Shown piece after piece: positions 4,657 through 63,627 of a stretch of 64,000 bases of DNA; positions within the stretch are counted from its first letter, which is position 1; each line of letters starts with the position of its first letter. Origin of the DNA: Flavihumibacter sp. (GTDB taxonomy: Bacteria; Bacteroidota; Bacteroidia; Chitinophagales; Chitinophagaceae); assembly GCA_031553495.1 (NCBI GenBank), contig JAVBLN010000045.1, forward strand, positions 10,174-74,173, given 5' to 3'. Both the position numbers and the translations under genes were made by a program. The notes below the pieces were generated by a model. It was not told the origin of the DNA. It saw only the letters and a list, made by a program, of their open reading frames with translations, and ran no database searches.

Positions 4657-4730
4657 TCAATAGATATTCACTGTTGAACGGAGCGTCGCAACTGAAGCTC
4701 AATCGAGATTCTATAGCTGACATCCAAAAT
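4657..4730 (-). repeat. Interspersed repeat core unit, R orientation, subtype V2
   Basis: ttcaatagatattcactgttgaacgGAGCGTCGCAACtgaagctcaatcgagattctatagctgacatcc, lying between the cysD stop and the TonB receptor start. The F-form hairpin is CAGCU-AUA-GAAUCUC-GAUU-GAGCUUC-AGUUG. Confidence 0.8.
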
Positions 4731-4763
4731 GAACTACCGGCAGTTCAGGTTTTGATTATCTAC

Positions 4764-5672
4764 TTAAAAATATCCATCCTTTTTGCGTTGTTCCATGGCC
4801 GCTTCGCTGCGCTGATCGTCCATGCGAGCGCCACGCTCAGAAATTTTTGCAGCCAGAATTTCATGAATAATATCATCAATATTATCTGCAACGGATGCAA
4901 CAGCCGCAGTGCAAGTCATATCGCCAACTGTACGAAAGCGAACCTTTTGAGAAAACGGAATCTCCTGTTCTGTGGTATTTAAAAAATCGGAGTATGGCCA
5001 TAAATTACCATCTCGTGTAATCACCTGCCGCTCGTGAGAAAAATAAATAGACGGTATCTGCAAACCTTCTTCACGTATATACGTCCACACATCCAACTCA
5101 GTCCAGTTGCTAATTGGAAACACTCTCACATTTTCACCGCGGTTAATTTTTCCATTCAGCATGCCAAACAATTCCGGTCGTTGTTTTTTAGGATCCCATT
5201 GCCCGAAATCATTGCGTACGGAAAATATGCGTTCTTTGGCACGGGCTTTTTCTTCATCTCTCCTGGCGCCGCCAATACACGCATCAAACTTAAATTCTTC
5301 AATAGCATCAAGCAAGGTTACGGTTTGCAAGGCATTCCGGCTTGCGTATTTTCCTGTTTCTTCTTTCACTTTTCCTTCATTAATGCTATCCTGCACATAA
5401 CGAACAATAAGTTCCGCGCCGGTTTCATTTATAAGCCAGTCGCGAAATTCAAGTGTTTCAAAAAAATTATGACCAGTATCCACATGCAATAAAGGGAACG
5501 GAATTTTTCCCGGCCAGAAAGCTTTTTGCGCCAGCCTCACAAGGGTTATAGAGTCTTTACCACCGCTAAACAACAATACAGGACGCTCAAATTGCGCAGC
5601 TACTTCTCTCATGATGTAGATACTTTCATCCTCAAGGCTGCGTGGAAAAGACGGAATTCTTTTTTCAGACAT
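4764..5672 (-). CDS. cysD: Sulfate adenylyltransferase subunit 2
   Basis: 302-aa ORF with ATG at 5672. ATP-PPase/PAPS-reductase fold motifs LLFSGGKDSITLVRLA and HVDTGHNF. Length and C-terminus (RMDDQRSEAAMEQRKKDGYF) are typical of CysD. Confidence 0.9.
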   Translation of the reverse strand: MSEKRIPSFPRSLEDESIYIMREVAAQFERPVLLFSGGKDSITLVRLAQKAFWPGKIPFPLLHVDTGHNFFETLEFRDWLINETGAELIVRYVQDSINEGKVKEETGKYASRNALQTVTLLDAIEEFKFDACIGGARRDEEKARAKERIFSVRNDFGQWDPKKQRPELFGMLNGKINRGENVRVFPISNWTELDVWTYIREEGLQIPSIYFSHERQVITRDGNLWPYSDFLNTTEQEIPFSQKVRFRTVGDMTCTAAVASVADNIDDIIHEILAAKISERGARMDDQRSEAAMEQRKKDGYF

Positions 5673-5762
5673 TCTTCTTCGTTTAATTTAAATCTCGTTT
5701 ACTCAATTGATCAGTATTCATTACTGATGTATGTTTTCTAAAATTATTTTTATTGTCACTTT

Positions 5763-6488
5763 TTATTTTACCACTGTTTGCACACTATGCAATCCGCATT
5801 CTTTTTGCGATGTTTCCCACCACCACCTTCCGGCTCTTATGTCTTCTCCGGGTTGAATGGCACGAGTGCAAGGCTGGCAGCCAATACTCAAAAATCCCTT
5901 ATCATGCAATGGATTATAAGGGATGTTATTGGTTGCAATGTATTGCAATAATTGCTCAAAAGTCCACTCGATTAGTGGATTAATTTTTACTAAGCCTCTT
6001 CCGCTATCCCATTCAGCCACCTGCATCTCATGCCTGTTGGCAGATTGATCTGCACGCAATCCTGTTATCCATATCTTCGCATTTTGCAATGCACGATTAA
6101 GCGGTTCCACCTTGCGTATATAACAACACTCTTTGCGGTTTTCAACAGACTCATAAAAACTATTCATTCCTTTCGTGTTCACCATTTCCTCTACTTTTGA
6201 AGCATCAGGAAAATAAGCCTTTACAGGAACTTTATATCTTGCCATTGTTTTGTCAATCAACTCATATGTTTCCTGGAAAAGCCGCCCCGTATCAAGCGTA
6301 AATATTTTTACGGGAAGTTGTTGCTTTGCAATCATGTGAGTAATAACCTGGTCTTCCTGTCCTAAAGATGTTGAAAAAACAACACCTTCCGGATAAAGCG
6401 AAACGATTTTTCTTAAACGCTCTTCCGCAGATAATGGTTGCAATGCCGTGATTACATCCTGCAAAATTTTAGCAAAGCTTTCATTCAT
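5763..6488 (-). CDS. cysH: Thioredoxin-dependent adenylyl-sulfate (APS)/PAPS reductase, Fe-S-type motif set
   Basis: The track ORF 5763-6515 begins at a TTG. In-frame ATGs lie at 6512 and 6488 (MNESFAKILQDV...), and I prefer 6488. The protein carries ECCYIRK plus GCQPC (the CC...CxxC motif of Fe-S APS reductases) and a C-terminal ECGLH catalytic motif. Confidence 0.85.
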   Translation of the reverse strand: MNESFAKILQDVITALQPLSAEERLRKIVSLYPEGVVFSTSLGQEDQVITHMIAKQQLPVKIFTLDTGRLFQETYELIDKTMARYKVPVKAYFPDASKVEEMVNTKGMNSFYESVENRKECCYIRKVEPLNRALQNAKIWITGLRADQSANRHEMQVAEWDSGRGLVKINPLIEWTFEQLLQYIATNNIPYNPLHDKGFLSIGCQPCTRAIQPGEDIRAGRWWWETSQKECGLHSVQTVVK

Positions 6489-6524: not shown

Positions 6525-7436
6525 CTAAAACAATCCCTCAATTGACAAATACCGCTCGCCGGTATCATAATTAAATGTAAGAACTGTACTGCCTTCCGGA
6601 ATTTCATTTATCTTTTTTGCAACTGCGGCAAATGCCGCGCCGCTTGATATTCCAACAAACAATCCTTCTTCTTTGGCTGCACGCTGCGTAAAATCAAACG
6701 CTTCGTCTTTACTAATTTGAATTACGCCATCTAGCAATTCCATCTTTAAAATGGAAGGAACAAATCCCGCGCCTAAACCCTGTAATGGATGCGGGCCGGG
6801 ACTTCCGCCACTTAATACAGGCGATAATTCCGGCTCCACAGCAAACACTTTCAGGTTTGGAAATTTTGATTTCAACACTTCAGCCACACCTGTAATATGG
6901 CCGCCTGTTCCTACACCTGTTATAAGATAATCAATACCACCCGGAAAATCATTAACTATTTCAAGCGCAGTTGTATTGCGGTGTATCTCAGTATTGGCCT
7001 CGTTATTAAACTGCTGCGGCATCCACGCATTCGGTATCAACTGTACTAATTCCGTAGCTTTTTCAATAGCCCCTTTCATACCTTTTTCCCGCGGTGTTAG
7101 CTCAAACGATGCGCCATACAACTGCATCAGCCTTCTGCGTTCAACACTCATACTTTCCGGCATTACCAAAATTATTTTATACCCTTTCACCGCTGCCACC
7201 ATTGCAAGTCCAATGCCTGTGTTGCCCGATGTTGGTTCTATAATCACACTGTCTTTATGCAGCACTCCTTTCCTTTCAGCGTCTTCAATCATTGCAAGAG
7301 CAATGCGGTCTTTTATGCTTGCTCCCGGATTGCTGCGTTCAAGCTTTACATACACCTTATGTTTATCGCCAAACAATCTGTTGATCTTCACATGAGGTGT
7401 GTTTCCAATAGTTTCCAGAATGTTGTTAGCTACCAT
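6525..7436 (-). CDS. cysK: Cysteine synthase A (O-acetylserine sulfhydrylase)
   Basis: PLP-fold motifs [26 protein letters not shown] and [10 protein letters not shown]. The track ORF extends to 7547 only by reading through repeat unit 7493-7572 ([10 protein letters not shown]...). ATG 7436 ([17 protein letters not shown]) is the plausible start. Confidence 0.9.
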
Positions 7437-7492
7437 TTCACTAAATTTTAAATTCTCTTTTATTATTAATAAGCACAATAATCGGTTCGTGC

Positions 7493-7843
7493 TTTTTATT
7501 ATGATACCGGCATTTGTGCTACTATTAAGCATCGTTGTGTCACTCACTTCAACTTTTAGTTCTTTAATCAGCTATACTACATGCAGCATAAGTTTATGCA
7601 TGAATGCTATTGGGCAGCCTCATCCCCGGCCCTTCTCCAAAGGAAAAGGGAGCCCGGCGCACAAAGCGGATATTCGTGGTCACAACAATTCTTTCACCAT
7701 TCATCCTTACCCGTTTTTAGTGGCTCATGCATCTCTCACTCATAACTCATAACTCACTACTCGATGAATAGCATTACTACCGTACAAGTGAGTGACACAA
7801 CGATGCTTAATAGTAGCAATACCGCTGGTTCCCACACAAAAAA
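7493..7843. repeat. Inverted doublet of repeat units (F 7493-7572, R 7765-7843, both V1) with mosaic spacer
   Basis: Left unit ...ccggcatttgtgctactattaagcatcgttgtgtcactcacttc...; right unit gaatagcattactaccgtacaagtgagtgacacaacgatgcttaatagtagcaataccgctgg. The spacer and right unit (7601-7843) are collinear with the 15137-15383 part of doublet 15074-15383, including the cctcatccccggcccttctccaaaggaaaagggagcc, attcgtggtcacaa and ctcataactcataactca modules. Confidence 0.9.
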
Positions 7844-7931
7844 TCTTTGCACATTTTCATGCTGTATAAAGTAAAAAATAAAGAACTAAATTCAATAGCA
7901 GCAGCTACTGCAGGAATTTTGTCAGCAATTT

Positions 7932-10370: not shown

Positions 10371-10458
10371 GCAACCTAATGTCGCCATGAAATACTACCG
10401 TACAAGTGAGTGACACAACGATGATGCCATGAAAAGCTAATGCCGGCACCAAAAAAAA
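10371..10458 (-). repeat. Repeat core unit, R orientation, subtype V4 (TTTCATGGC-flanked)
   Basis: gcaacctaatgtcgccatgaaatactaccgtacaagtgagtgacacaacgatgatgccatgaaaagctaatgccggcacc followed by an A-run. It sits in the cysI to cobA gap. Confidence 0.85.
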
Positions 10459-12234: not shown

Positions 12235-12445
12235 CATTGAATTATTGAATCATTGATTTCCAAATTATGGCATCCATCACATTACCCTCATTTTCAAACG
12301 CATTTCTAAATTCATTTTCACATTTTCACATTACCAAAATTTGTTCAAACCAAATAAGCAAAGCCATTCACACTGCATTTTCAAATTTTCAAATCAGCAC
12401 ATTTTCAAATTCATTTCAACATTTCCACATTTTCACATTTCTACA
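12235..12445. repeat. Short-period module block (AATCATTGA array then about 15 copies of a CATTTTCA-like array) filling the cysJ-cysI spacer
   Basis: atcattgaattattgaatcattga, then ...cattttcacattttcacattacc...cattttcaaattttcaaatcagcacattttcaaattcatttcaacatttccacattttcacatttctacat. Confidence 0.85.
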
Positions 12446-15064: not shown

Positions 15065-15073
15065 TTTTTAAGA

Positions 15074-15383
15074 TTTTTTTGGGAACCGGCTTTAGTGGTA
15101 CTATTAAGCATCGTTGTGTCACTCACTTGTACGGTAGTAATGCTATTGGGCAGCCTCATCCCCGGCCCTTCTCCAAAGGAAAAGGGAGCCGACGCACAAA
15201 GCGGAAATTCGTGGTCACAATAATTCTTTCTCCATTCATCTTTACGCGTTTTAAGCGGCTCATGCATCTCTCACTCATAACTCATAACTCAAAACTCACT
15301 ACTCAATGAATAGCATTCCTACTGTACAAGTGAGTGACACAACGATGCTTAATAGTAGCACTACCGCCCGTCCCAAAAAAATA
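15074..15383. repeat. Inverted doublet of repeat units (F 15074-15151, R 15305-15383, both V1) with mosaic spacer
   Basis: tttttttgggaaccggctttagtggtactattaagcatcgttgtgtcactcacttgtacggtagtaatgctattgggc ... gaatagcattcctactgtacaagtgagtgacacaacgatgcttaatagtagcactaccgcccgtccc followed by an A-run. It lies in the divergent rrf2/fhs region. Confidence 0.9.
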
Positions 15384-17418: not shown

Positions 17419-17760
17419 ATTTGTGGGCCGGGCGATAGAATAAGCATTAAGCTTTTCTTGCGTCGCACTCTTGTACGTTTGGTTCGCTATTCGGCGCTAA
17501 TATGCAAATTAATATTTTCATACAATGGAATTAATATATAGCCGCAATCAAAGGTATAAAACGAAATAAGAATACTTATTTACAGTGTTTATTCAGGGTC
17601 TGCAAGACAACTTATTATTCTTTAAAACAACCTCTAAAATGCGAATTTCCGCTGCTGTCATTAATAAAGAATACTGCCCCTAAATCGTTGAATAGAATTC
17701 CCTTTGCTGAAGTCACAGTAGTGCAAAAGCTTAATCAGGGCGCTACCCGCAATCGGGCCG
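17419..17760. repeat. Degenerate inverted doublet (F 17419-17496 subtype V3; R 17688-17760 strongly diverged)
   Basis: F unit: tttgtgggccgggcgatagaataagcattaagcttttcttGCGTCGCactcttgtacgtttggttcgctattcggc. R unit: ttgaatagaattccctttgctgaagtcacagtagtgcaaaagcttaatcagggcgctacccgc, where the core heptamer is lost. Confidence 0.55.
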
Positions 17761-21012: not shown

Positions 21013-21094
21013 TATTAATATGGAACCGGCAGTTGAGCCCTGATCTGGCTTCTGTTGTGTCACTCACTTGTACTGTTGTAATTCTATTGAGCGA
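21013..21094 (+). repeat. Repeat core unit, F orientation (V1 tail, V2-type hairpin apex)
   Basis: ttattaatatggaaccggcagttgagccctgatctggcttctgttgtgtcactcacttgtactgttgtaattctattgagcgag. Hairpin: CGGCAG-UU-GAGCC-CUGAUCU-GGCUU-CUGUUG. Confidence 0.9.
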
Positions 21095-21170
21095 GTGAGG
21101 AGTTGGCAGCGGAGAAGCTAACAAGTAACTAAAATAAAAATCGAAGCTATATAAGACTACTGTCACCGGT

Positions 21171-22307: not shown

Positions 22308-22383
22308 CAATTTTTTCTGCAAAATAATTTATTCTTTTGATAGTGGGCAGTTGGCATCAGAGAGATGTCAGAGAACAGTGTCT

Positions 22384-22466
22384 TGCCGAATAGAATTACT
22401 TCAGCACAAGAGTGCGACGCAACGGCCGTTCCATAGTAATTCAAATGTTGGGCTCATAATAAAAAC
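22384..22466 (-). repeat. Repeat core unit, R orientation, subtype V3
   Basis: gccgaatagaattacttcagcacaagagtGCGACGCaacggccgttccatagtaattcaaatgttgggctcataataaaaacc. Differs from 57958-58038 by 3 substitutions and 1 indel. Confidence 0.9.
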
Positions 22467-26206: not shown

Positions 26207-26485
26207 TTTTAAAACTTTGCATAAAATATTGCGCCTTAAATTGTTTTAACCGAAACAATTAAATGATAAAATCGAGCATTATATCATTTGTAGAAATTTT
26301 GGGACAATTAAAAGAGTTAAAAATTGAAAGTTGAAAGTGCTGGTAATATCTAAATGAATTCACTCAAAACTCATTACTCATAACTTTTTTGAAACCGGCG
26401 ATATTGCTACTATTAAGCATCGTTGTGTCACTCACTTGTGCGGTTGTAATACTATTGGGCAATTTGGTTGTTGGTTGTTGGCGTT

Positions 26486-26667: not shown

Positions 26668-26777
26668 AAACTTTTCAGGGCTCAATAGCTATTCTACAGA
26701 TGAACGGAGCGTCGCAACCGAAGCCTCATCAGGGCGCTACCGCCGGCCCCATAATAACAATTTTAAAACATCAGAGG

Positions 26778-29468: not shown

Positions 29469-29605
29469 AATGAAACTTTCCTTTAAACAAATTACATTAA
29501 AAATAATTTGCAAAACTATCGAATAATCAAATTATTGAATCAATGAATTAATGAAAAGGCAAACATTAGCTTATACAGCCTGCTTCACTCATTCAATCAT
29601 TTGTC

Positions 29606-29805
29606 CAACAGCATTACCACAGTTGAACGGAGCGTCGCAACCGGTGCGCAATCAGGGCTCTGCTGCCGGCTCCATTATCAAAAATCAAAAATTAGACATT
29701 GTATAAGCCTATGCAGTAAATCGCATTTTTTTTGGGGGACGAGCCGTTGTAATACTATTCAACATCGTTGTGTCACTCACTTCAACTGTAGTAATTCTAT
29801 TCATC
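29606..29805. repeat. Back-to-back pair of repeat units in R-then-F order (R 29606-29685 V2; F 29726-29805 V1)
   Basis: caacagcattaccacagttgaacggaGCGTCGCaaccggtgcgcaatcagggctctgctgccggctccattatcaaaaa ... ttttttttgggggacgagccgttgtaatactattcaacatcgttGTGTCACtcacttcaactgtagtaattctattcatc. Confidence 0.85.
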
Positions 29806-29942
29806 AATTTGTACATCCTCACTTATTGCAAACAACACAAAATTCTGAGCCCAATTATTCTATAATTCAATCATTCAATAATTGAAAAAGGGCCATGAGC
29901 AAATCAACTCATGACCCCAAAACGATAGGCTGATAAAAAAAA

Positions 29943-31277: not shown

Positions 31278-31373
31278 AGCGTAAAAATTAGTTGATAGTT
31301 GAAAGTGCTTTTTACACTAATTGCTAGCAAAAACAAAAGCACTCATTACTCAAAACTCAAAACTCATAACTTG

Positions 31374-31458
31374 TTGAATAGCATTACTACCGTACAAGTG
31401 AGTGACACAACAGAAGCTTAATAGTAGCACTTCTGCCGGCTCCATAAAAAAATAAAAC
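31374..31458 (-). repeat. Repeat core unit, R orientation, V1 with fully compensated hairpin
   Basis: ttgaatagcattactaccgtacaagtgagtgacacaacagaagcttaatagtagcacttctgccggctccataaaaaaataaaac. The F-form hairpin is CGGCAGAAG-U-GCU-ACUAUUA-AGC-CUUCUGUUG. Confidence 0.9.
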
Positions 31459-34889: not shown

Positions 34890-34970
34890 TTTTTTTATGG
34901 GGTCAGCGGCAATGCTACTATCAGCAGCCGTTGCCACGCTCGCTTGTACAATTGTAATGCTATTGGGCGC
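34890..34970 (+). repeat. Repeat core unit, F orientation, diverged V1 (core GCCACGC)
   Basis: tttttttatggggtcagcggcaatgctactatcagcagccgttgccacgctcgcttgtacaattgtaatgctattgggcgc. Hairpin: CAGCGGC-AA-UGCU-ACUAUC-AGCA-GCCGUUG. Confidence 0.75.
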
Positions 34971-35044
34971 TGAATTTCGAACTTTCCTGCTAATTTTGGC
35001 AGTAAGCACTAATATTCTATTAATCTAATAAAACCGGTTTCACA

Positions 35045-37833: not shown

Positions 37834-37930
37834 CCACAGTTAATAATTGTTATACCGGCGGCGGTTTTTTATGGCATCATCGTTGCGTCGCATTCCGTTC
37901 ATCGGTAGTATTTCATGGCATCGTTGGGCC
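37834..37930 (+). repeat. Repeat core unit, F orientation, subtype V4 (core GCGTCGC)
   Basis: ccacagttaataattgttataccggcggcggttttttatggcatcatcgttGCGTCGCattccgttcatcggtagtatttcatggcatcgttgggcc. It is collinear with 60684-60780. Confidence 0.85.
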
Positions 37931-38765: not shown

Positions 38766-38830
38766 AAACCGATTTCATTATTTTTTTACTTGCCTATCCA
38801 TTGTGATAGAACCTGTTAAATTGTACTGAT

Positions 38831-38908
38831 GATTAGAATTACTACAGTACAAGTGAGTGACACAACCGGAGCATAATCAGGGCCCAGCCGCCGGTACCCA
38901 AATAATAA
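38831..38908 (-). repeat. Repeat core unit, R orientation (V1 tail, V2-type apex)
   Basis: gattagaattactacagtacaagtgagtgacacaaccggagcataatcagggcccagccgccggtacccaaataataa. Confidence 0.85.
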
Positions 38909-41504: not shown

Positions 41505-41740
41505 TTTTTTTTGGTATCAACGGTATTGCTACTATTTAGCATCGTTGTGTCACTCACTTGTGCGGTAGTAATTCTTTTCAGCAAGTTGAAGCATTCATGC
41601 GTAAATTTATACTGCGAATAGCATAGCGAGATCAATACATAAGAACACTACTGCATAATGTACAATAAAGAACAAACCGCTGAAGTGTGCGACGCAACAA
41701 AAGTTCAATAGTAGCAATGCAGCCGGGTCCATAAAAAAAA
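41505..41740. repeat. Inverted heterotypic doublet, 236 bp (F 41505-41582 V1; R 41663-41740 V3)
   Basis: ttttttttggtatcaacggtattgctactatttagcatcgttgtgtcactcacttgtgcggtagtaattcttttcagc ... caataaagaacaaaccgctgaagtgtGCGACGCaacaaaagttcaatagtagcaatgcagccgggtccataaaaaaaa. Same length and architecture as 53558-53793. Confidence 0.9.
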
Positions 41741-41821
41741 CACCTAAAAAATAACCTGTTCAAATATATTATCAACTCCGGCATCATGAAAACGATTGGC
41801 AGATAATTACAACCATACATC

Positions 41822-46929: not shown

Positions 46930-47195
46930 AATAGTGGAAAGTTGAAAATTGAAAGTTGTATAAATGGATTCTCACTCATAACTCACAACGCATAACTTTT
47001 TTGTAACCGGCGGTATTGCTACTATTAAGCATCGTTGTGTCACTCACTTGTACGGCAGGAATGCTATTGAGCGAGTTATGAGTTATGAGTTTTGCGTAAT
47101 AAGTGCTTTTGTTTTTGCTTGCAATCAGTGCATAAAGCATTCTCAATTCTCAATTCTCCACTAAATAAGCACTTTCAACTTTCAATTCTCCATTT
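46930..47195. repeat. Nested palindromic mosaic: TTGAAAGT arm / CTCATAACTCA arm / core unit / inverted CTCATAACTCA arm / spacer module / inverted TTGAAAGT arm
   Basis: gtggaaagttgaaaattgaaagttg (46934-46958) pairs with gcactttcaactttcaattctcc (47169-47191). ctcactcataactcacaacgcataac (46971-46996) pairs with gttatgagttatgagttttgcg (47076-47097). Core unit 46997-47075 sits at the apex. Confidence 0.8.
46997..47075 (+). repeat. Repeat core unit, F orientation, canonical V1
   Basis: ttttttgtaaccggcggtattgctactattaagcatcgttgtgtcactcacttgtacggcaggaatgctattgagcgag. Hairpin pairs: 47008-47013 with 47032-47037, and 47017-47020 with 47028-47031. Confidence 0.95.
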
Positions 47196-47883: not shown

Positions 47884-47970
47884 ATGATTGAATCATTGAA
47901 ATTATGCAAAGCATTCTTTCGTGTATTGATGCTATACGCTGTATAAGTTTGCGCATGAATGTTTCACTTT

Positions 47971-48050
47971 GCTCAATAGCATTACTACCGCACAAGTGAG
48001 TGACACAACGATGCTTAATAGTAGCAATACCGTTGATGCCAAAAATAAAA
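47971..48050 (-). repeat. Repeat core unit, R orientation, V1, with extension module 47933-47970
   Basis: gctcaatagcattactaccgcacaagtgagtgacacaacgatgcttaatagtagcaataccgttgatgccaaaaataaaa. The preceding tacgctgtataagtttgcgcatgaatgtttcac is the reverse complement of the module following F units at 53637-53670. Confidence 0.9.
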
Positions 48051-49973: not shown

Positions 49974-50060
49974 GTGGAGAGTGGAGAGTTGAGAATGGAG
50001 AGTTGAGAATGCTATAGATATTAGATAAAGCTGAAACAAAAACACTCATAACTCACAACC
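49974..50060. repeat. Module block (GAGAGTTGAGAAT array, spacer module, CTCATAACTCA) adjoining unit 50062-50141
   Basis: gtggagagtggagagttgagaatggagagttgagaatgct...aaacaaaaacactcataactcacaaccc. The module order matches 31291-31373 and mirrors 47076-47192. Confidence 0.75.
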
Positions 50061-50061
50061 C

Positions 50062-50141
50062 GCTCAATAGCATTCCTACCGTACAAGTGAGTGACACAAC
50101 AGAAGCCCCATCAGGGCTTTACTGTTGGTCACATAATAAAA
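50062..50141 (-). repeat. Repeat core unit, R orientation, V1 tail with fully Watson-Crick hairpin
   Basis: gctcaatagcattcctaccgtacaagtgagtgacacaacagaagccccatcagggctttactgttggtcacataataaaa. The hairpin is CAACAG/CUGUUG plus AAGCCC/GGGCUU (50097-50127). Confidence 0.9.
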
Positions 50142-53446: not shown

Positions 53447-53557
53447 ATAGTTCGTTTTCTTACATAGTGTTTACAGATTTAATCATATCTCCGCGGCTTC
53501 GGCATCTTATACCACATGCCTGTTTATTATATTAATGCAGTAAAAAATGCGCAGTTA

Positions 53558-53793
53558 TTTTTTATTGAACCAGCGGTATTGCTACTATTAAGCATCGTTG
53601 TGTCACTCACTTGTGCGGTTGAATTTCTATTCAGCCATGTGAAACATTCATGCCAAATTTATACAGCGTTTAGTACAGCATGCTAAACAAATAAAACGCA
53701 TTCCGCATTATGCACAATAGCGAACAAACCGCTGAAGAGTGCGACGCAACGGCTGCTTAATAGTAGCACTACCGCCCGGCTCATAATAAAAAA
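53558..53793. repeat. Inverted heterotypic doublet, 236 bp (F 53558-53636 V1; R 53714-53793 V3)
   Basis: ttttttattgaaccagcggtattgctactattaagcatcgttgtgtcactcacttgtgcggttgaatttctattcagcc ... acaatagcgaacaaaccgctgaagagtGCGACGCaacggctgcttaatagtagcactaccgcccggctcataataaaaaa. Confidence 0.9.
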
Positions 53794-53818
53794 CAATTTA
53801 CGTTATACTGTTCATAAA

Positions 53819-56800
53819 TTATAATCTTGCCACTTTTATTCTTTGTATGTTGCTGCCATATTTTACAATAAAAACATACATGCCTGACGATTGGTATAAT
53901 AATACATTTTTCGCCGCGTCTTTCACATAGCTAAAACTGCCGGTATATCCTGCTATTTTGCTTCCATCCATGGTAAACACTTCCAACCCAATTTTTTCAG
54001 TTCCATTAAAGAAATAGTTTGATAGCACCTCTACTGAACTTCTTACAGGATTAGGTTTCACCATTATCATATTAGCCGGTTGCAGGTTTGTAATCACTTC
54101 AATTATTTTATGATTGCTAACACGACCATCATTATCCACCTGCTGAAGTCTGTAATACAATTTCGATGTATTTATATCATCATCAGTAAACGAGTAATTT
54201 TTTATAGTAGTATTTTCCTCTTTATCCGCATCTACAAAGCCTATTTCAAGAAAAGTTTTCCCATCTTCCGAACGAAGAACCTTAAACCCTTTATTGTTGT
54301 ATTCAGATGTAGTAGTCCATTTCAGTTCCACCACATTATTTTTATATAGTCCTGTAAAGCCGGTTAATGTTACAGGCAGTACAACATTATCACTATACAC
54401 AGCAAATACATGAAACGAAGGAATGTTATTCTCCGATTTTAAATAGGGCCCGGATCCTGTGGCGCCTGTTACTGAAGAAACGTTTGTCCAGCCTGCGACA
54501 GCATTCGAATACATTACTTTAGCGAGGCTGTTAACAAAGTCGCCTGACTGATCAGAAGCGTTCCACTGAAATGTAGCATTAACATTTACTCCACTTGCAA
54601 TTTCCGGTTCTATAATCCAACTTTTGTTTACAACACCTGTCGATACAGGGCTTCCGGAAGTTCCACCAGATAATACACTTTCAAAAACACGAATATTAAA
54701 ATTGGTTAAAGTGCCCGAATTACTTATAATCACAGGCGTATAAGTAGAATTACCAACCGGAAATAATTTGCTTTCGCTTCCTACCTGTTGTTCTACACTA
54801 CCCGCTCCTGCTGCAACATCCAGGGTTTGAATGTATGAGGAATTGCTGCCCCCTGTAATTGCTGTAGCAGGGGATAATTGTAAATTATAATTTCCAAGCT
54901 GCAGTTTTCCGTTCGTTAATATTAATTCATCATTCACTTTAATAGAAGCATTTAATTGAACATTGTTCGCATTGGCAATTTCGAGTTTGTTAAAAGCGAT
55001 GGCACCTGTAATGTTCTGCAATGCGTTTCCCGCCAGTATTACAGAACCTTCTCCGCTAAAAGTGCCACTGCCGCTTATGGTTTCGCCATTTACAAGTATG
55101 TTGACACCGGAATTAATTGTTGCAGTTGTCCCATCTTCAATCCATAAATCATTACACTGTATAGTATTTGTGAAAACAGGTGCAGGCTTAGCATTTGCGG
55201 GAATTATAAGATTATATGCAGCACCCGGCATTTGACCTTCTTCCCAATTGCCGCAATCTGTAATATCGGATGAACCTTTATTGCCAGTCCATATTGCTGC
55301 TTTCAAAGAAGTACTATTTTCTGGTGCAAGTGTATTAACCACCTGGGGCGCAGTGTATGTTACATTTATCCAACATTTTTGTTCGGACTGTGTGTTGGTG
55401 GTGTTCCTTATTTTTACTGTTATCCAGCCATCAGCAGAAGAAGTGAACACACCGGTTAAAGGAGATGCAGTTGAGGTAACACCACTCATTTCATGCAATT
55501 TGGTTCCATCCAAATTCCATATGGAAGTGGTGACATTGGTATTATTAACTTCAGGAAAAACTTTATAGGTAATTGTTTCTCCACCTGCTACAAATATTTT
55601 TCCGGCAACCCGCTGATTTGTGGAACTGGCAGGTAACTTACCGCCTTGTCCTAACGACTGACAATGACTATCTCCTAAATCATCAGCCATTTCCCACTCC
55701 TGCGTGGTTTCCGCACTGCGCGAAGGTGAATAAGTTGCTAAATGATCATACAAATCCTGAACACTTGTTACGGTCACGCCTTCCGGAGCAGGCGCCCAAA
55801 TAGAATATCCATGACCGTTAGCATCTGCTATTGTATGACCAACACAAGCCGTTTTAATTAACACCCTTCTATCATTATAAACTTCAGAAGTAGAAATTCC
55901 ATGAGCACCAGAATAATCGTATAATGTTTTACCCACCCACGAGTCATCTACTGTAACCCACACTTCCTGGTCGGTATCATAAGAATCGCTAATACCAATT
56001 ATAGCTTTCCCAATACGGTCAATTACCAAATGATCACCCAAATCACCTGTCACAAGGTAAACATCCGCCAGGGACGAGGGAACCGCATAACTACCATTTT
56101 TAAAATCCAATTTCTGATGGGCCTGCAAAATATTTTGCAGATCACTTCTTACTGGTAAATCACTGGTACTGGAAGGAAGGTGTGTCCATCGTTTTCCTGT
56201 GGTACCTATATCAAAAATATCTTCAAAAAAGAAAGCCGGATTGCCATCAATAGCGCAAATGGCAGCATAAGCCGCCGCAAGCCTTGGTTCGCGTGGATCT
56301 ATGTGCTGTCCGTTTCCACCAAGCTCATTGCCGGTATCCCATCCCGAAGCGTCTCCTAAAGGCTTTGAAAAGTTTCCGTCTGCATCCAATTTAGGACGAT
56401 ACGTATCATGGCTGTTTACAAAAGGCACAGTACGGTACACCCGCTTTCCACCAGGATAATCCATGTATCGCCTGTCTTGTTGCTCACCGGGAATATTTTG
56501 CATATTGTAGCCGCCCATTCCTAACACCATGCTATATAAACCGCCATTATACCCATACCCGCGCATACTAAAATCGAATGTTCCGGTACTTAGTTCGTTA
56601 GTAACACCATTTGGCGCAGTGCCGGTACGCACATTCCACATGTAGTTATCTAATTCTGTTTTATTGCCAATCCATTCTCCCACACAAAACATATTCTGAT
56701 CGCCATTTGCAAAGTCTGCAACATATTTTGAGTTATAAATAAAATCTTCCTGTACGTTGATATCAAAATGCTTTACTGCGTCCCATCGCCAGCCATCAAC

Positions 56801-57637
56801 TCCTGTTTGTTTTTTTAACCACACAATCCATTGGCGTGCATTATCACGCATATAATTATTTGCCTGTACAGGATTATAATATGGTCTTACCGTAGCACCA
56901 ATTGTTGCATTTCCGGTGGAAGGAATATTAGAGCTTTGCCCTGCCGATCCGCTTAAGTAGCTGATATCCGGCCCCCAGTAGCTTTCACAAATATCACCAC
57001 TCACACAATTGTCGGAGGCATTAGGATGAAAATTCCAATAGTTTTTACTCCATCTTCCGGAGCGTGTCCAGTAATCATCCGATGATTCATCAATTAAAGG
57101 TGTAGCGTATGAAACATAACGAAAGTTTTTATACCCACTCGCGGTTTGCATGGAATAAGTCGCTTCAGGATCCTGTCCGCCGGTACCGCTATTAGTGCCT
57201 GCATCAGTAGTGTGATTTAGCACCACATCCTGGATTACTTCAAGGCCATTGGCATGCATCACCGCAATCATGCGCAGGTATTCATCTTTGGTACCCATTC
57301 TTGTTTTCACATTTATGGTGCCGCCGCCTTTTTGAAATTTGTCGCCTAAATCATACTGATCAAATGGTGCATACCCTACAGAACCTGTAGATGAATTTTT
57401 ATAACTCGGTGGTATCCATACCGCATCAAAACCTGCCGCTTTAAGGCGCGGCGCCAATTCACATAAATAATTACTCCAGCCATTCGGATAATTCGCATTC
57501 CAATAGTCCCACCAGAATGCCTGAAAGACAGCTTTCTTTACTGTGGAATTTTGCCCATAACCAATAGTATGCAGCATCAAAAAACAGCATACCAAAAAGA
57601 GTAAGATTTTTGCAGATGAGTACTTTAACATTTTCAT
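53819..57637 (-). CDS. Secreted GH13 alpha-amylase with long beta-rich extension and T9SS C-terminal sorting domain
   Basis: 1272-aa ORF with a signal peptide. GH13 regions QDVVLNHTT, GWRWDAVKH, CVGEWI and FVNSHDTYRP. The C-terminal ~80 aa (VKPNPVRSSVEVL...GMYVFIVKYGSNIQRIKVARL) fit the T9SS type A CTD pattern. Confidence 0.85.
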   Translation of the reverse strand: MKMLKYSSAKILLFLVCCFLMLHTIGYGQNSTVKKAVFQAFWWDYWNANYPNGWSNYLCELAPRLKAAGFDAVWIPPSYKNSSTGSVGYAPFDQYDLGDKFQKGGGTINVKTRMGTKDEYLRMIAVMHANGLEVIQDVVLNHTTDAGTNSGTGGQDPEATYSMQTASGYKNFRYVSYATPLIDESSDDYWTRSGRWSKNYWNFHPNASDNCVSGDICESYWGPDISYLSGSAGQSSNIPSTGNATIGATVRPYYNPVQANNYMRDNARQWIVWLKKQTGVDGWRWDAVKHFDINVQEDFIYNSKYVADFANGDQNMFCVGEWIGNKTELDNYMWNVRTGTAPNGVTNELSTGTFDFSMRGYGYNGGLYSMVLGMGGYNMQNIPGEQQDRRYMDYPGGKRVYRTVPFVNSHDTYRPKLDADGNFSKPLGDASGWDTGNELGGNGQHIDPREPRLAAAYAAICAIDGNPAFFFEDIFDIGTTGKRWTHLPSSTSDLPVRSDLQNILQAHQKLDFKNGSYAVPSSLADVYLVTGDLGDHLVIDRIGKAIIGISDSYDTDQEVWVTVDDSWVGKTLYDYSGAHGISTSEVYNDRRVLIKTACVGHTIADANGHGYSIWAPAPEGVTVTSVQDLYDHLATYSPSRSAETTQEWEMADDLGDSHCQSLGQGGKLPASSTNQRVAGKIFVAGGETITYKVFPEVNNTNVTTSIWNLDGTKLHEMSGVTSTASPLTGVFTSSADGWITVKIRNTTNTQSEQKCWINVTYTAPQVVNTLAPENSTSLKAAIWTGNKGSSDITDCGNWEEGQMPGAAYNLIIPANAKPAPVFTNTIQCNDLWIEDGTTATINSGVNILVNGETISGSGTFSGEGSVILAGNALQNITGAIAFNKLEIANANNVQLNASIKVNDELILTNGKLQLGNYNLQLSPATAITGGSNSSYIQTLDVAAGAGSVEQQVGSESKLFPVGNSTYTPVIISNSGTLTNFNIRVFESVLSGGTSGSPVSTGVVNKSWIIEPEIASGVNVNATFQWNASDQSGDFVNSLAKVMYSNAVAGWTNVSSVTGATGSGPYLKSENNIPSFHVFAVYSDNVVLPVTLTGFTGLYKNNVVELKWTTTSEYNNKGFKVLRSEDGKTFLEIGFVDADKEENTTIKNYSFTDDDINTSKLYYRLQQVDNDGRVSNHKIIEVITNLQPANMIMVKPNPVRSSVEVLSNYFFNGTEKIGLEVFTMDGSKIAGYTGSFSYVKDAAKNVLLYQSSGMYVFIVKYGSNIQRIKVARL

Positions 57638-57785: not shown

Positions 57786-58038
57786 TATTATGAGCCCAAC
57801 GGTATTGATACTATTAAGCATCGTTGCGTCGCACTCTTCAGCTTTTGATTCTTTATTGGGCAATGACTAATAAAATTCAAAAGTCAAACAAAGAGCAGTC
57901 CGGTGTTGAAATTATGATTTACTAATAAGAACAACATTTAGTGCCTTATTATTAATTGCCGAATAGAATTACTTCAGCACAAGAGTGCGACGCAACGGCT
58001 GTTCCATAGTAATTCAAATGCCGGGCTCATAATAAAAC
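57786..58038. repeat. Inverted homotypic doublet (F 57786-57861 V3; R 57958-58038 V3)
   Basis: tattatgagcccaacggtattgatactattaagcatcgttGCGTCGCactcttcagcttttgattctttattgggc ... gccgaatagaattacttcagcacaagagtGCGACGCaacggctgttccatagtaattcaaatgccgggctcataataaaacc. Confidence 0.9.
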
Positions 58039-60446: not shown

Positions 60447-60683
60447 CTTGATTCTTTTTTTGTGCTCTTACAAGTACAGTTTAATTTTAAGGTCAAAGTA
60501 ATTCCTATAACTTACCAGCCATTACTCATAGAAGCCGCATGAGTAAGCATTTCCAGATATCCGCAGAAGTTTTTATTTTGGTTCTTGTTATTTAATTTAG
60601 CTATAATGAAAGCAGAGAGTTTTCATGGCACAAACGACAACTTTTATCAAGGTGTTTATACTCTATTTTTTTCTTGATGAATA

Positions 60684-60780
60684 CCGCAGTTGATAATTAT
60701 TGTACCGGCTTCAGTTTTTCATGGCATCATCGTTGTGTCACTCACTTGTACAGTAGTATTTCATGGGAACATTGGGTTGC
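60684..60780 (+). repeat. Repeat core unit, F orientation, subtype V4
   Basis: ccgcagttgataattattgtaccggcttcagtttttcatggcatcatcgttgtgtcactcacttgtacagtagtatttcatgggaacattgggttgc. A partial extra tttcatggcacaaacgacaac lies at about 60625-60648. Confidence 0.85.
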
Positions 60781-61490: not shown

Positions 61491-61544
61491 ATCTATCTAT
61501 ACATTTTTAAATTGAAGCAATATAACATAATAATATACACGAAA

Positions 61545-63404
61545 TTATTTCAACTCCAGCACCCATGCGGTTTTGGCCGGCATTGTAATATTTCCTGTAA
61601 CATCAACCACTGCATTCGTAATAATATTTTGTCCTTTTGTAAAGCTTTTAATACGTTCATCAAAGCGTTTGGCCGTCAGGGTCGTCTCCTTATCATTGCT
61701 ATTCACAATTATCATTACAGTTTCACTCTCATTATACCGGAAGCTTACATACACACCATTTTCCGGAACGTATTGCATAAGTTTTCCTGTTTGCAGCGCT
61801 TCGCTTTGTTTCCTATAATTTGCCAGTTTTCTAAAGTAATTAAAAGCATCGTTTTCTTTTGCGGTCCTTCCGCTTGCATCAAATTTGTTTACTTTATCTT
61901 CTGCCCATCCGCCTTTGAAATCTTCGCGCACTTTGCCATCAGGATCAGAAAAATTCTTCATTAAAATTTCGGTGCCATAATATATTTGCGGTATACCGCG
62001 GGTAGTGAGCAATAACGCCAGCCCGCTTTTGTATTTATCAATATCTTCCTGCACCATCGAGTAATAGCGGTTCATGTCGTGGTTATCCATAAACACAACA
62101 TTCCTGGAAGGATCTTTATACACAATATCCTGCGAAAGCACATCATAAAATCTTGCCACGCCATCCATCCAGCCAAACTTTCCGTTCAGCGATTCATAAA
62201 TAGCATTCTTTACCTGCACATCCGTTACACCGGGAAGCCTGGTATCGAAGCCTTGCTTAAACACATCCCCTTCGCAATAAAAGGCCTGGCTAACAACAGA
62301 ATTTACAAGTGTTTCACCAAAAATGGAGAAGTTTGGATATTCATACTTTACGGCGGTCATCCAATTAGCCATAAATTTTAAATCGTTATAAGGATATGTA
62401 TCAATTCTAAAACCATCTACACCGGCATATTCAATCCACCAGATATAATTCTGTGTAAGATACTTTTCAACCAGCGGATTGCTTTGATTCACATCGGGCA
62501 TGGTAGGTACAAACCAGCCATCAACCTGTAATTTCCAATCCATAACGGCCCTGTAAGGATCCATTGCCGGTTGATCTTTGTAAGTAGTTTGCGTATACCG
62601 CGGCCATTGATGTACCCAGTTTTTCATAGGAAGATCACGCATAAACCAATGCTCGCTGCCCCAATGGTTGGGAACCACATCTTTTATAACTTTCAAACCC
62701 TTTTCATGGCACTTTGCTACATAAGTTTTATACAATTCATTGGTCCCGTAACGCGGATCAATTTTGTAAAAATCAGTAGCGGCATAACCGTGATAAGAAG
62801 CCTGCTTCATATCATTTTCCACTTCGGGAGTCATCCATATAGCAGTAACGCCAAGATCTTTTAAATAATCCAAATGATTAATCACTCCTTGTATATCGCC
62901 ACCGTGCCTGTAATACATGGAATCGCGGTTAACCGTTGTTTCGCGCATGCCGGTAACTATATCGTTGGATCTATCCCCGTTTGAAAAACGATCAGGCATT
63001 ATAAGATAGATCAGATCTTTGCTGGTAACTCCTTGTGCTTTTACCCGTGCATGTTCCCGTGCTTTTAACTCATAGTTGTAAACAAGAGCTTTATCTTTTT
63101 TTGCAGCAGGCAGAAAAGTAATGGCAAAAGTTCCGGGTTGTGTGGTAGCGTCAATCTTTAAATCGAGAAACAAATAATTAGGATTCTCCGTTTTACATAC
63201 CTTTTCAAGTATAACACCGGGATAATTTAATTGCACATTTCGCTCTGCAATTTTATCGCCATATACCAGCAATTGCAAATTCGGGTCCTTCATACCCACC
63301 CACCAGTTAAGCGGCTCCACGCGGTCTAAAGAAGATTTCGGTTGTGCCATTACGTTAGTAATGGTAAAAAGGCAAAGCGAAAACGCTAAAATCAAGGCTT
63401 TCAT
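61545..63404 (-). CDS. GH13 neopullulanase/cyclomaltodextrinase-like enzyme (SusA-like) with N-terminal Cyc-maltodext_N-type domain
   Basis: 619-aa ORF with a signal peptide. RVEPLNWWVGM N-domain. GH13 regions KDVVPNHWG, GFRIDTYPY, IFGETL and FMDNHDMNR. Confidence 0.85.
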   Translation of the reverse strand: MKALILAFSLCLFTITNVMAQPKSSLDRVEPLNWWVGMKDPNLQLLVYGDKIAERNVQLNYPGVILEKVCKTENPNYLFLDLKIDATTQPGTFAITFLPAAKKDKALVYNYELKAREHARVKAQGVTSKDLIYLIMPDRFSNGDRSNDIVTGMRETTVNRDSMYYRHGGDIQGVINHLDYLKDLGVTAIWMTPEVENDMKQASYHGYAATDFYKIDPRYGTNELYKTYVAKCHEKGLKVIKDVVPNHWGSEHWFMRDLPMKNWVHQWPRYTQTTYKDQPAMDPYRAVMDWKLQVDGWFVPTMPDVNQSNPLVEKYLTQNYIWWIEYAGVDGFRIDTYPYNDLKFMANWMTAVKYEYPNFSIFGETLVNSVVSQAFYCEGDVFKQGFDTRLPGVTDVQVKNAIYESLNGKFGWMDGVARFYDVLSQDIVYKDPSRNVVFMDNHDMNRYYSMVQEDIDKYKSGLALLLTTRGIPQIYYGTEILMKNFSDPDGKVREDFKGGWAEDKVNKFDASGRTAKENDAFNYFRKLANYRKQSEALQTGKLMQYVPENGVYVSFRYNESETVMIIVNSNDKETTLTAKRFDERIKSFTKGQNIITNAVVDVTGNITMPAKTAWVLELK

Positions 63405-63551
63405 ATAATGAGTGGTTTATTATTTTTATACGGGAGCAGGCAATACTGATCATTCATAATGTTAATTCCCCCTTCAACATCTTCACAGTATTACCTGCAT
63501 TTCATTTGATCGTAGGTACATAGTGTTTGCAATAATTATTTCTGTTACACG

Positions 63552-63627
63552 TTGCCGAATAGTATTACTACCGTACAAGTGAGTGACACAACGATGCTTA
63601 ATAGTAGCAATACCGCCGGTTCCATAA
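63552..63627 (-). repeat. Repeat core unit, R orientation, canonical V1
   Basis: ttgccgaatagtattactaccgtacaagtgagtgacacaacgatgcttaatagtagcaataccgccggttccataac. Confidence 0.95.

Follow-up and report, generated by a model that had tools for sequence, protein, structure and literature searches.

What is the repeat of about 80 nt that recurs between the genes of this 64,000-nt stretch of Flavihumibacter sp. DNA (hereafter the window)? A preliminary description of the window had counted 29 units, 13 in forward (+) and 16 in reverse (-) orientation, and an nhmmer profile of the 64-kb window recovered the same number and strand split (28/29 units with E ≤ 3e-4; one degenerate unit with E = 0.002). 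The 20-mer core GTTGTGTCACTCACTTGTAC was matched 17 times in the window at ≤3 mismatches, with 0 matches expected from shuffles. Together, the core matches, the profile matches and the intergenic placement described below demonstrate that the repeat family is real and non-random.

Architecture and dialects of the repeat unit

A unit of ~80 nt is composed, in order, of a T-run, a CCRGC box, a left arm of ~20 nt, a core of 20 nt and a right arm of ~20 nt. The arms are variable and the core is near-invariant across genera; the monomer is a linear sequence motif, not a palindrome. Two main core dialects, GTTGTGTCACTCACTTGTAC and GTTGCGTCGCACTCTTGTAC, coexist within single genomes, and a 7-bp palindromic segment of the core reads GTGTCAC in V1, GCGTCGC in V3 and GCGACGC in the rarer V2. 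Our genome scan demanded an exact core, which accounts for part of the core conservation in the V1 set; V3-type cores, which were not part of the locus selection criterion, were conserved equally well in loci picked by the V1 core. Arm identity was 0.71 among window units, 0.42 across genomes and 0.27 in shuffled sequences, and we count this greater likeness of arms inside one genome as duplicative behaviour.

The four subtypes proposed earlier (V1–V4) were present as described when the units were aligned. V1 units include the copy originally taken as canonical (46997..47080, +; E = 3.9e-23), the unit at 63546..63628 (-; E = 4.6e-24) and one with a CCCTGAT-type left arm (21015..21098, +; E = 3.1e-19), and V1 cores with V4 arms were found at 10389..10457 (-; E = 1.2e-9; TTTCATGGC on both sides) and 60696..60762 (+; E = 6.5e-8). 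A V3 core, GTTGCGTCGCACTCTTGTGC, is carried by 22378..22463 (-; E = 8.2e-19; 96% identity to 57956-58037, family D5), and a variant core, GTTGCCACGCTCGCTTGTAC, by 34891..34974 (+; E = 4.6e-14) in a divergent gap. Short-read contigs from the same organism terminate in units (L001, L206), as is expected of multi-copy repeats.

Placement of units relative to genes

All 29 units are intergenic, in agreement with the earlier claim that none lies inside a credible coding sequence; at a coding fraction of 0.81, the chance of this outcome is ~1e-21. The lone apparent overlap, between unit 7495+ and ORF 6525-7547, disappears when cysK is started at the Met near 7436. Units occupy 21 of the 26 gaps longer than 180 nt that separate the genes as called here (21 of 25, with a limit of about 180 bp, in the earlier count) plus the gap at the window end. 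They sit strictly between operons in either orientation relative to genes, and with respect to transcription their orientation is close to random. In the window, 16/29 lie in sense orientation downstream of a stop codon, among them a V2 unit with core GTTGCGACGCTCCGTTCAAC (4650..4729, -; E = 1.4e-10), 34 nt past the stop of gene 4764-5672. A solitary V1 unit (31365..31451, -; E = 2.1e-23) lies 66 nt past the stop of an ABC transporter gene.

The T-run side was nearer a gene in 87/125 single units (p = 1.4e-5), whichever end of the gene was concerned. A terminator-grade hairpin preceded the T-run in 24–39% of units facing a 3' end and in 6–19% of those facing a 5' end, and the T-run often doubles as the U-tract of the nearer gene's terminator; in our terminator scan, the T-run of unit 41506+ was the tail of a hairpin at 41484-41502 after scpA. 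These features would suit a core that is a host cis-element, a site for a conserved and abundant DNA-binding protein (nucleoid-associated, insulator-like or a roadblock terminator) that marks operon boundaries and whose copies are retained by selection, not transposition. The strict placement between operons, the polarity toward gene ends with frequent terminator fusion, the near-invariance of the core across genera and its palindromic 7-bp segment in all three dialects fit such a site. The nearly random orientation relative to transcription argues against it, as do the comparisons with relatives below, and we regard this explanation as unlikely.

Folding of single units and of head-to-head doublets

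The preliminary description had called the unit structured, more elaborately so than REP/BIME, REPIN or MITE elements, and had placed a TGCT...AGCA hairpin in its left arm. None of this was borne out for single units. RNAalifold gave 0 consensus pairs for the 29 window units and none for 189 units on either strand, mean MFE z-scores against shuffles were -0.08 (F strand) and -0.5 (R strand), and the left arm and the core folded no better than shuffles. On its own, a unit has on neither strand a fold that is conserved or better than chance; it is therefore not a structured RNA, and not a strict palindromic REP either. A few copies carry a local hairpin, such as AAGCCCTGATGGGGCTT at 50103-50119, in the left arm of a unit with a V1 core located 13 nt past the stop of an MFS gene (50055..50140, -; E = 4e-20).

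These hairpins, and the 16 sense units behind stop codons, are what could be said for a structured non-coding RNA, a small RNA gene or a 3'-UTR RNA element. Such a reading is largely refuted by the folding results and is highly improbable: Rfam returned 0 families at the gathering threshold and only noise at E ≤ 10, no promoter -7 box was found at a fixed offset, and units occur in both orientations relative to genes. No tRNA was found either. The earlier statements that the unit is not a tRNA and could be matched to no known RNA class are supported, and we found no previous description of the repeat in the literature searched.

Strong hairpins were given only by pairs of units in inverted orientation. 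Unit pairs ≤500 nt apart were convergent, or head-to-head, in 18 cases, divergent in 2 and tandem in 1, whereas those >500 nt apart were balanced (19 convergent, 21 divergent; 14 tandem). Close pairs were mostly heterotypic (V1+V3), and the head-to-head doublets form long imperfect hairpins (fold z = -4.5 to -14.7). Doublet 7495-7846 (z = -9.6; 83% identity to 15075-15381) consists of a unit with the …CTTCAAC variant of the V1 core (7495..7576, +; E = 7.7e-18) and a V1 unit (7756..7834, -; E = 4.6e-22). Doublet 15075-15381, in a divergent promoter gap, consists of two V1 units (15075..15155, +; E = 1.8e-22; 15307..15381, -; E = 1.7e-21) and has inverted-repeat arms of 73 nt that are 89% complementary (z = -14.7). 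A V1/V2 doublet (z = -7.7) is formed by 26385..26466 (+; E = 1e-22) and 26672..26757 (-; E = 1.9e-18), the latter 20 nt past the stop of gene 26778-27995. After scpA, V1 unit 41506..41591 (+; E = 7.5e-21) faces V3 unit 41653..41738 (-; GCACACTT; E = 6.1e-15; z = -4.5), and a further V1/V3 doublet (z = -6.4; 74% identity to 41603-41740, family D9) pairs 53559..53644 (+; E = 1.9e-22) with 53705..53790 (-; E = 1.2e-19), 28 nt past the stop of gene 53819-57637. The V3/V3 doublet is made of 57786..57868 (+; E = 3.6e-19) and 57951..58036 (-; E = 2e-20; z = -8.4). A V3-like unit 94 nt past the FTHFS stop (17420..17500, +; core CTTGCGTCGCACTCTTGTAC; E = 7e-11) and its degenerate partner with a decayed core (17681..17747, -; E = 0.002) together fold at the level of shuffles (z = -0.2). 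A single divergent (tail-to-tail) pair is present in the window; it comprises a V2 unit (29596..29681, -; E = 1.5e-17) and a V1 unit of the CAAC variant (29728..29812, +; E = 1.3e-19).

Composite doublets of 230–350 nt were duplicated whole at distant sites, with similarity stopping at the outer T-run and A-run, and no target-site duplication was visible at the doublet ends inspected. Unrelated arms are common in the two halves of one doublet, so nothing points to a perfect hairpin having been selected for, and the case for the doublet as the unit of replication is the weaker for it. An exact Bacteroidetes -7 box, TAnnTTTG, occurs in the spacers of some doublets.

In the window, inverted pairs also enclose single genes: the phytase-like 21171-22322, frr, the metzincin-like 47236-47883, and HAD together with amylase. 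Other genomes supplied 14 more such cases. If units were recombination sites of the attC, dif or invertase type, bracketing exchangeable or invertible segments, both these genes and the short promoter-bearing spacers between inverted units would be explained, and the metzincin-like gene is missing, together with one unit, from the syntenic locus L003. We nevertheless consider this very unlikely. The genes between the paired units are housekeeping genes without relation to one another, no recombinase gene lies nearby, and the usual difference in core between doublet partners (V1 versus V3) would prevent conservative site-specific exchange; moreover, no orientation is favoured beyond 500 nt, so gene-flanking pairs are expected from the high density alone.

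Distribution among relatives and likeness to known systems

The preliminary description had left a choice between a local duplication and a dispersed family, and the family is dispersed: the exact 20-mer core pattern was found in >113 loci from many genera of Chitinophagaceae, a family found in soil and water (596 Gb scanned; by a rough estimate, ~9 chance matches). Among the matches listed, every host with a name belongs to Chitinophagaceae or Chitinophagales, and cultured ones include Niabella, Segetibacter, Foetidibacter, Deminuibacter, Ferruginibacter, Polluticaenibacter and Chitinophaga. Related lineages differ in unit density, the extremes being 20 kb without a unit and one unit per 2 kb. 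In the window, the FtsX-GT4-frr-mscL-DUF3078-scpA neighbourhood holds six units in 10 kb, whereas the same neighbourhood in five relatives (frr 83–87% identical; Pinibacter aurantiacus and strain 26-R-25 included) holds 0 units in ~75 kb total. The V4-armed unit upstream of frr (37847..37914, +; core GTTGCGTCGCATTCCGTTCATC; E = 2.6e-4; 80% identity to 60659-60739, family D10) is absent from the orthologous gap of all five, and the V1-core unit between frr and mscL (38821..38906, -; E = 2.4e-19) is likewise absent from that of the relatives. Strain 26-R-25 has a full unit at another locus (L010). In L003, a unit in the orientation of V1 unit 47962..48045 (-; E = 4.6e-22) precedes the orthologous ABC gene, and the syntenic gap there has one unit against two units and an extra gene in the window. 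Loss of units in the relatives would, in principle, account for their absence as well. The only near-identical pair of loci (L040/L108, 98% identity) showed no presence/absence polymorphism.

Since five relatives have no unit in the orthologous gaps, the genes concerned do not need units, which counts against a selected protein-binding site. The range of densities does too, and selection on a 20-bp site leaves unexplained the genome-specific arms and the whole doublets duplicated elsewhere. We think it probable instead that the units are a Chitinophagaceae-specific family of non-autonomous interspersed mobile elements, selfish in behaviour and with REP/BIME/REPIN-like organisation, and their abundance in the window is best read as a burst of copying in its lineage.

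With no transposase, target-site duplication or strain-level polymorphism found, the mechanism of mobilisation is one that we infer. A family-conserved, sequence-specific enzyme acting in trans would recognise the core, perhaps together with the CCRGC box, and would insert new copies of units, or of head-to-head doublets, at T-rich sites beside gene ends. At 3' ends these sites would be terminator U-tracts; at 5' ends they would be the A-rich leader or promoter region, read on the other strand. Insertion into such sites would explain both the T-run polarity and the convergent pairing. Effects on the host are probably secondary: the T-run would act as a terminator tail, doublets would place hairpins in 3' UTRs, and an outward promoter-like module would occasionally be present. 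Against a mobile element, the conserved core is internal to the unit, unlike terminal DDE-type inverted repeats. A search of the window for a transposase, RAYT or integrase was negative, and the suggested RAYT, IS200/IS605 or TnpB partner was found neither there nor in ~1.2 Mb of unit-bearing loci, where phmmer with E. coli RayT gave no match; 717 ORFs around units yielded no recurrent transposase-like cluster. This lack of a mobilising enzyme also favours the protein-binding site.

Among known systems, DNA uptake signals (DUS and USS) resemble the units in having a core that is common to a family and split into dialects, in being dense and found in both orientations, and in often forming inverted pairs near terminators. 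It is extremely improbable that the core is such a signal, enriched through biased transformation: DUS and USS are motifs of 9–12 nt present within genes too, whereas the units are far longer, ~80-nt insertions confined to intergenic DNA, co-amplified with lineage-specific arms and missing from orthologous sites in relatives. Pneumococcal BOX elements are modular mosaics, as are the units, whose arm and core modules are recombined into V1–V4; however, BOX modules A and C pair into a stable fold, which the units do not have, and BOX occurs in only a few species, the units throughout a bacterial family. MITEs (Neisseria Correia, pneumococcal RUP, enterobacterial ERIC) resemble the doublets in length (150–350 bp), long inverted ends, whole-element duplication, intergenic location and a possible outward promoter-like module. 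They differ in that the doublets have no target-site duplication, doublet ends are usually of different dialects with unrelated arms, the unit is conserved in a subterminal or internal part, in most genomes the greater share of units are solo and no parent insertion sequence is known.

The closest likeness, already suggested in the preliminary description, is to REP/BIME of Enterobacteriaceae and REPIN-RAYT of Pseudomonas and E. coli. The ~80-nt monomer is not palindromic, it is invariant along a linear core of 20 nt, it has no 5' GTAG tag, and its core contains CGTC or TGTC without the 8–9-bp stem of CGTC REPs; a T-run polarised toward genes belongs to the unit or abuts it, and no RAYT was found in the ~1.2 Mb. 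REPs of the Bacteroidetes RAYT subclass 2.6 are short hairpins, unlike the unit (PMC6006769 Table S1). The organisation is nonetheless shared. Both are extragenic, highly repeated and found in both orientations, with common singlets, long-hairpin doublets, an association with gene 3' ends, lineage-specific expansion and maintenance throughout an entire bacterial family. REP families as a rule form head-to-head dimers and heterodimers (PMC3733652). In BIMEs, as among the units described here, head-to-head dimers predominate, often combining two sequence types (the Y and Z palindromic units in BIMEs) and with mosaic spacers.

Census and anatomy of the unit

Searching the window with the V1 core dialect, GTTGTGTCACTCACTTGTAC, gave 17 matches at three mismatches or fewer against none in 100 shuffles, indicating that the core repeat of the preliminary description is genuine. 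A profile built on 16 seed copies recovered the 29 units counted there, split 13:16 between the + and - strands (28/29 at E ≤ 3e-4 and one decayed copy at E = 0.002; 64-kb window). All 29 lay outside genes on our gene map of the window, as had been claimed, which has a chance probability of ~1e-21 because the coding fraction is 0.81; the unit at 7495 (+ strand) overlaps ORF 6525-7547 only through an over-extended GTG start, with the PALP domain beginning after a Met near 7436. Units occupied 21 of the 26 gaps longer than 180 nt, supporting the high occupancy first noted, and the four subtypes V1 to V4 were present as described. At roughly 80 nt each, the 29 copies make up ~3.6% of the window and sit in most of its inter-operon gaps, among ordinary chromosomal genes (cys operon, FTHFS, gatB, frr, mscL, scpA, starch utilisation). 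These housekeeping genes also surround a RES toxin/Xre-like antitoxin pair (33783-34771; PF08808, PF20432 + PF09722), which is replaced by a ParE-type pair in Chitinophagaceae bacterium strain 26-R-25. The exclusion of tRNA and CRISPR held, as ARAGORN found no tRNA in the window and unit spacing is irregular, in kilobases, unlike a CRISPR array.

An information profile of 189 units anchored on the core, with positions counted from the first core base, resolved a T-run that usually ends in G (-38 to -32), a CCRGC box (-27 to -23), a weakly conserved left arm (about -22 to -1), a near-invariant core (0 to 19) and a weakly conserved right arm (to about +38), beyond which conservation ceased. The two main core dialects are V1 and V3, the latter reading (G/C)TTGCGTCGCAC(T/A)CTTGTAC, and V2, GTTGCGACGCTCCGTTCA, is rarer. 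A 7-bp palindrome, GYGWCRC, is common to all three: units that pass the core pattern have either T/A or C/G at positions 4 and 8, with no mixed case, and outside that set the window variant at 34891 (+ strand), GCCACGC, departs from the palindrome. Because the dialects are subfamilies, these palindrome-preserving changes represent one or two evolutionary events and not repeated covariation. Within a unit, the two arms show weak direct similarity (p = 1.5e-4) and no inverted complementarity. In V4 copies TTTCATGGC flanks the core on both sides (e.g. 10389-10457, 37847-37914 and 60696-60762), in V1 copies CTATTRAGC does so, and two loci from outside the window (L109, L113) provide further examples; the similarity could stem from an ancient duplication inside the unit, from intra-unit conversion or from paired binding sites.

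The preliminary description had called the units structured, and here folding gave a different answer. The RNAalifold structure was empty for the 29 window copies and, on both strands, for 189 copies from many genomes, with mean MFE z-scores of single units at -0.08 and -0.5. A proposed TGCT-loop-AGCA hairpin did not survive, since the left arm folds no better than shuffles; the core likewise equalled shuffles and the right arm was marginally better (p = 0.03). The Rfam check suggested at that stage returned 0 matches at gathering score in the 64 kb, and a doublet (two neighbouring units) searched at E ≤ 10 returned noise only. On these grounds (empty RNAalifold, segments that fold like shuffles, no Rfam match) we rejected a structured RNA. 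We also rejected a signal-peptide-like micro-ORF: some window copies open with ATG and would translate into hydrophobic peptides, but frames vary by subtype, stops are present (the V2 frame reads ATG GGG CCG GCG GTA GCG CCC TGA) and copies in other genomes mostly have no ATG. Promoters inside the unit of the Bacteroidetes sigma-A (-33 TTTG/-7 TAnnTTTG), ECF or sigma-54 type were dismissed because spacings do not fit; on neither strand of the unit does a -7 box keep a constant offset, and a sigma-54-like TGGCAT-N5-TTGYG is confined to V4 arms. Separately, three V1 units have beside their right arm a module, CGCWGTATAARTTTRCGCATGAATGYTTCA (53654-53661, - strand; 47944-47951, + strand; 41602-41609), with an exact or near-exact Bacteroidetes -7 box (TAAATTTG, TAAGTTTG, TAAATTTA) that reads through the unit; two of the three modules are directed at a downstream gene start (53446, 48236). 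The module could be an outward promoter, though its -33 spacing falls short of ideal.

Distribution and lineage-specific spread

We scanned 185,579 species genomes for GTTGTGTCACTCACTTSWRC, requiring an exact V1 core, and found it in at least 113 stretches (rough chance expectation ~9). The family is thus dispersed, as first proposed, and is not a local duplication. Among the matches listed, all named hosts were Chitinophagaceae or Chitinophagales, and the cultured ones included Niabella pedocola, N. ginsengisoli, Segetibacter aerophilus, Foetidibacter luteolus, Deminuibacter soli, Ferruginibacter paludis, Polluticaenibacter yanchengensis and Chitinophaga skermanii. A profile search of the matches listed (0.8 Mb) detected 172 units, including V3 units that the scan had not selected for; 6 of the 172 fell inside ORFs, by crude longest-ORF calls. 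A number of genomes matched the window in density; UBA4407, for one, had 17 units across four 8-kb loci. In IMG/VR the exact core occurred on eleven stretches of nine contigs called viral or proviral (L195-L205), several of them bearing 3-5 units (L196, L203, L204, L205), and PLSDB plasmids and GenBank phages gave no match. An FTHFS-based metagenome scan yielded only loci without a unit (L115-L194), the best relatives being only 67% identical. Our literature search found no paper giving the core.

The gene order FtsX-GT4-frr-mscL-DUF3078-scpA is shared by the window and five relatives (frr 83–87% identical), namely Pinibacter aurantiacus, strain 26-R-25 and three metagenomic lineages. Across ~75 kb of these loci the relatives carry no unit, whereas the matching 10 kb of the window carries six, and the gaps of this segment are 150–190 nt longer in the window. 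Elsewhere strain 26-R-25 does have a complete unit (L010); the family is therefore present in that strain and sparse. At another syntenic locus, L003 (flanking genes at 70% nucleotide identity), a 195-nt gap holds one unit where the window holds two and an extra metzincin-like gene. That ORF (47236-47883; 215 aa) lies between inverted units, has no Pfam match, carries the metzincin-type zinc motif HEYGHTLGLLH and is missing from the L003 gap. Arms were 0.71 identical inside the window and 0.42 across genomes, against 0.27 in shuffles. Two doublets are themselves duplicated (7495-7846 versus 15068-15393, at 83%; 41499-41743 versus 53552-53795), and similarity between the copies ends at the outer T-run and A-run. 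Two Logan short-read contigs identical to the window (L001 and L206, run SRR23967709) stop at both ends within or beside units. Taken together, these observations show a duplicative spread specific to the lineage and not a regulatory site fixed since ancient times. A conserved position beside particular genes was also rejected, as the neighbouring ORFs cluster into paralogous families beside which the unit has no fixed place.

The main alternative, which we regard as unlikely, is a host protein-binding site for ‘operon punctuation’ with a conserved protein on the core; such a site would account for the invariant palindromic core but leaves the unit-free orthologous gaps, the genome-specific arms and the duplicated doublets unexplained. 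For the spreading repeat, we infer mobility from genus-level comparisons. The intergenic DNA of the closest relatives has diverged too far for an alignment to fix exact insertion points.

Short tandem arrays of 7-8-mers (ACTCATA/GAGTTAT, AGTTGAA, ATTTTCAA, AATTAATG) also occupy intergenic gaps, both in the window (46933-46990 with 47073-47195; 26315-26385; 29530-29555 with 29858-29883; 12313-12447; 48150-48206; 1273-1344) and in a further locus, L207 (3830-3960, 5330-5450, 6395-6560). They often form inverted pairs, sometimes nested, around a unit or central segment. Since similar inverted arrays occur in unit-free Pinibacter gaps, they are a separate feature of the clade.

Polarity, pairing and the search for a partner enzyme

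Units show almost no preference for one orientation with respect to the genes beside them. Single units turn their T-run side towards the nearer gene (87/125; p = 1.4e-5), at 3′ and 5′ gene ends alike, with genes outside the window taken as crude longest ORFs. A stable hairpin directly precedes the T-run in 24–39% of units facing a 3′ end in sense orientation versus 6–19% at 5′ ends, so that hairpin and T-run at a 3′ end constitute a canonical intrinsic terminator (e.g. hairpin 41484-41502). Pairs within 500 nt were overwhelmingly convergent (18 of 21, with 2 divergent and 1 tandem; 17:1:0 by a core-based count), whereas pairs more than 500 nt apart were not (19 convergent versus 21 divergent and 14 tandem). 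The majority of pairs join a V1 to a V3 unit. Doublets fold into long imperfect hairpins (z -4.5 to -14.7), and compact ones with core starts only 48 nt apart occur in two loci outside the window (L011 and L096). Partners often have unrelated arms, which limits pairing to cores, CCRGC boxes and T/A-runs. Duplicative, intergenic and family-restricted, the element combines an invariant core with T-run polarity and head-to-head pairing.

Doublet spacers contain further structures. Within that of doublet 26385/26672 lies a long near-perfect hairpin (26484-26590; 48-nt arms, 75% complementary, 11-nt loop) with many CACAAGG repeats. Two large doublets share in their spacers (~7625-7665 and 15160-15200) a hairpin module rich in G+C, GGCCCTTCTCCAAAGGAAAAGGGAGCC, with GCCTCATCCCC ahead of it; copies of a related sequence, CCCTCTCCAAAGGAGAGGG, lie beside a unit in a Segetibacter MAG (L028, 1735-1790), and the module is another dispersed repeat.

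Conservation of the core across a whole bacterial family points to a conserved protein partner. A conserved trans-acting enzyme probably reads the core and inserts copies beside T-tracts; on one strand such tracts would lie at terminators, on the opposite strand within A-rich leaders or promoter regions. Placement at T-tracts of both strands would account for the polarity rule and for the convergence of units that share a gap. We found no RAYT, IS200/IS605, TnpB or other transposase gene in the 64-kb window, no recurrent transposase-like cluster among 717 ORFs near units (all-against-all clustering), no transposase among ORFs between convergent units and, by phmmer with E. coli RayT, no match in ~1.2 Mb of unit-bearing loci. 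Neither six window doublets nor ten from other genomes had a direct repeat at their outer borders, and this lack of target-site duplication argues against classical DDE cut-and-paste. Bacteroidetes possess a RAYT subclass of their own (2.6), whose REPs are ‘atypical’ (PMC6006769). We rejected these as the identity of the unit, since the REPs listed in Table S1 of that paper are short hairpins unlike it; the Table S1 entries searched included no Chitinophagaceae species code. A dCas12f-sigmaE system was set aside, the paper on it concerning specific loci and not dispersed repeats.

One possible reading, which we hold tentatively, is that the family is a long-lived, vertically inherited Chitinophagaceae replicator analogous to REPIN-RAYT, whose enzyme would read, instead of a DNA hairpin, a linear 20-bp core in two coexisting dialects paired head-to-head. 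If so, there would be an undescribed domesticated transposase or recombinase, and T-tracts at gene ends would set insertion polarity.

Comparison with known repeat systems

Work on interspersed repeat families has concentrated on Proteobacteria and, to our knowledge, has hardly touched Bacteroidota. The units fragment short-read assemblies of common soil, freshwater and wastewater bacteria, and the family can serve as a marker to type strains and follow repeat bursts. A partner enzyme, if found, could represent a new sequence-specific DNA-processing activity; if a host factor binds the units instead, these sites would mark operon boundaries in an understudied phylum.

Readings of the unit as a recombination site, an uptake signal or a structured RNA each fail specific tests. 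Integron attC sites are imperfect palindromes with RYYYAAC...GTTRRRY ends and serve cassette ORFs in one orientation, whereas single units are not palindromic, doublets reverse the order of the ends (GTTG...CAAC), and units lie in both orientations beside housekeeping genes. DUS/USS have a short core that also occurs within coding regions; the units are instead intergenic and ~80 nt long, with co-amplified arms. An Rfam-type family has a covariation-backed structure and matches a curated model, and the units have neither.

The preliminary description had likened the units to REP/BIME, REPIN or MITE elements, ‘more elaborately structured’. The likeness stands for their intergenic placement and head-to-head doublets, but their monomers lack the REP palindrome and tag, no target-site duplication was seen, and the greater structure did not hold up. 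DDE-type MITEs have target-site duplications, which were absent at the doublets checked, and terminal inverted repeats; here inverted ends (~60–80 nt) belong to doublets, most units being solo and partners differing in arms and core dialect. MITEs also typically have an autonomous relative, an insertion sequence that shares their ends; here the 717 ORFs near units held no recurrent transposase, and PLSDB plasmids and GenBank phages gave no match. Unlike the units, REP/BIME/REPIN monomers are imperfect palindromes (stem-loops) with an unpaired 5′ tag at the hairpin foot (GT[AG]G or CGTC): the units have no GTAG at a fixed position, and CGTC/TGTC lies inside their core, where a stem follows in some V3 copies only and spans no more than 4 bp. 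A single-copy RAYT (Y1 HuH) flanked by repeats, which accompanies REPs, was found neither in the window nor in the 1.2 Mb of unit-bearing loci searched. Units and REP families share extragenic confinement, with tens to thousands of copies in REP families, and a dominance of inverted over tandem doublets. REP families form head-to-head dimers and few tandem ones and prefer heterodimers, habits that exactly match those of the units (PMC3733652). Failing the REP palindrome and tag tests and the MITE duplication test, the units are REP/MITE-like in behaviour and a member of neither family; the repeat family is real, we found no description of it, and it is best filed with the REP/BIME/MITE kind.
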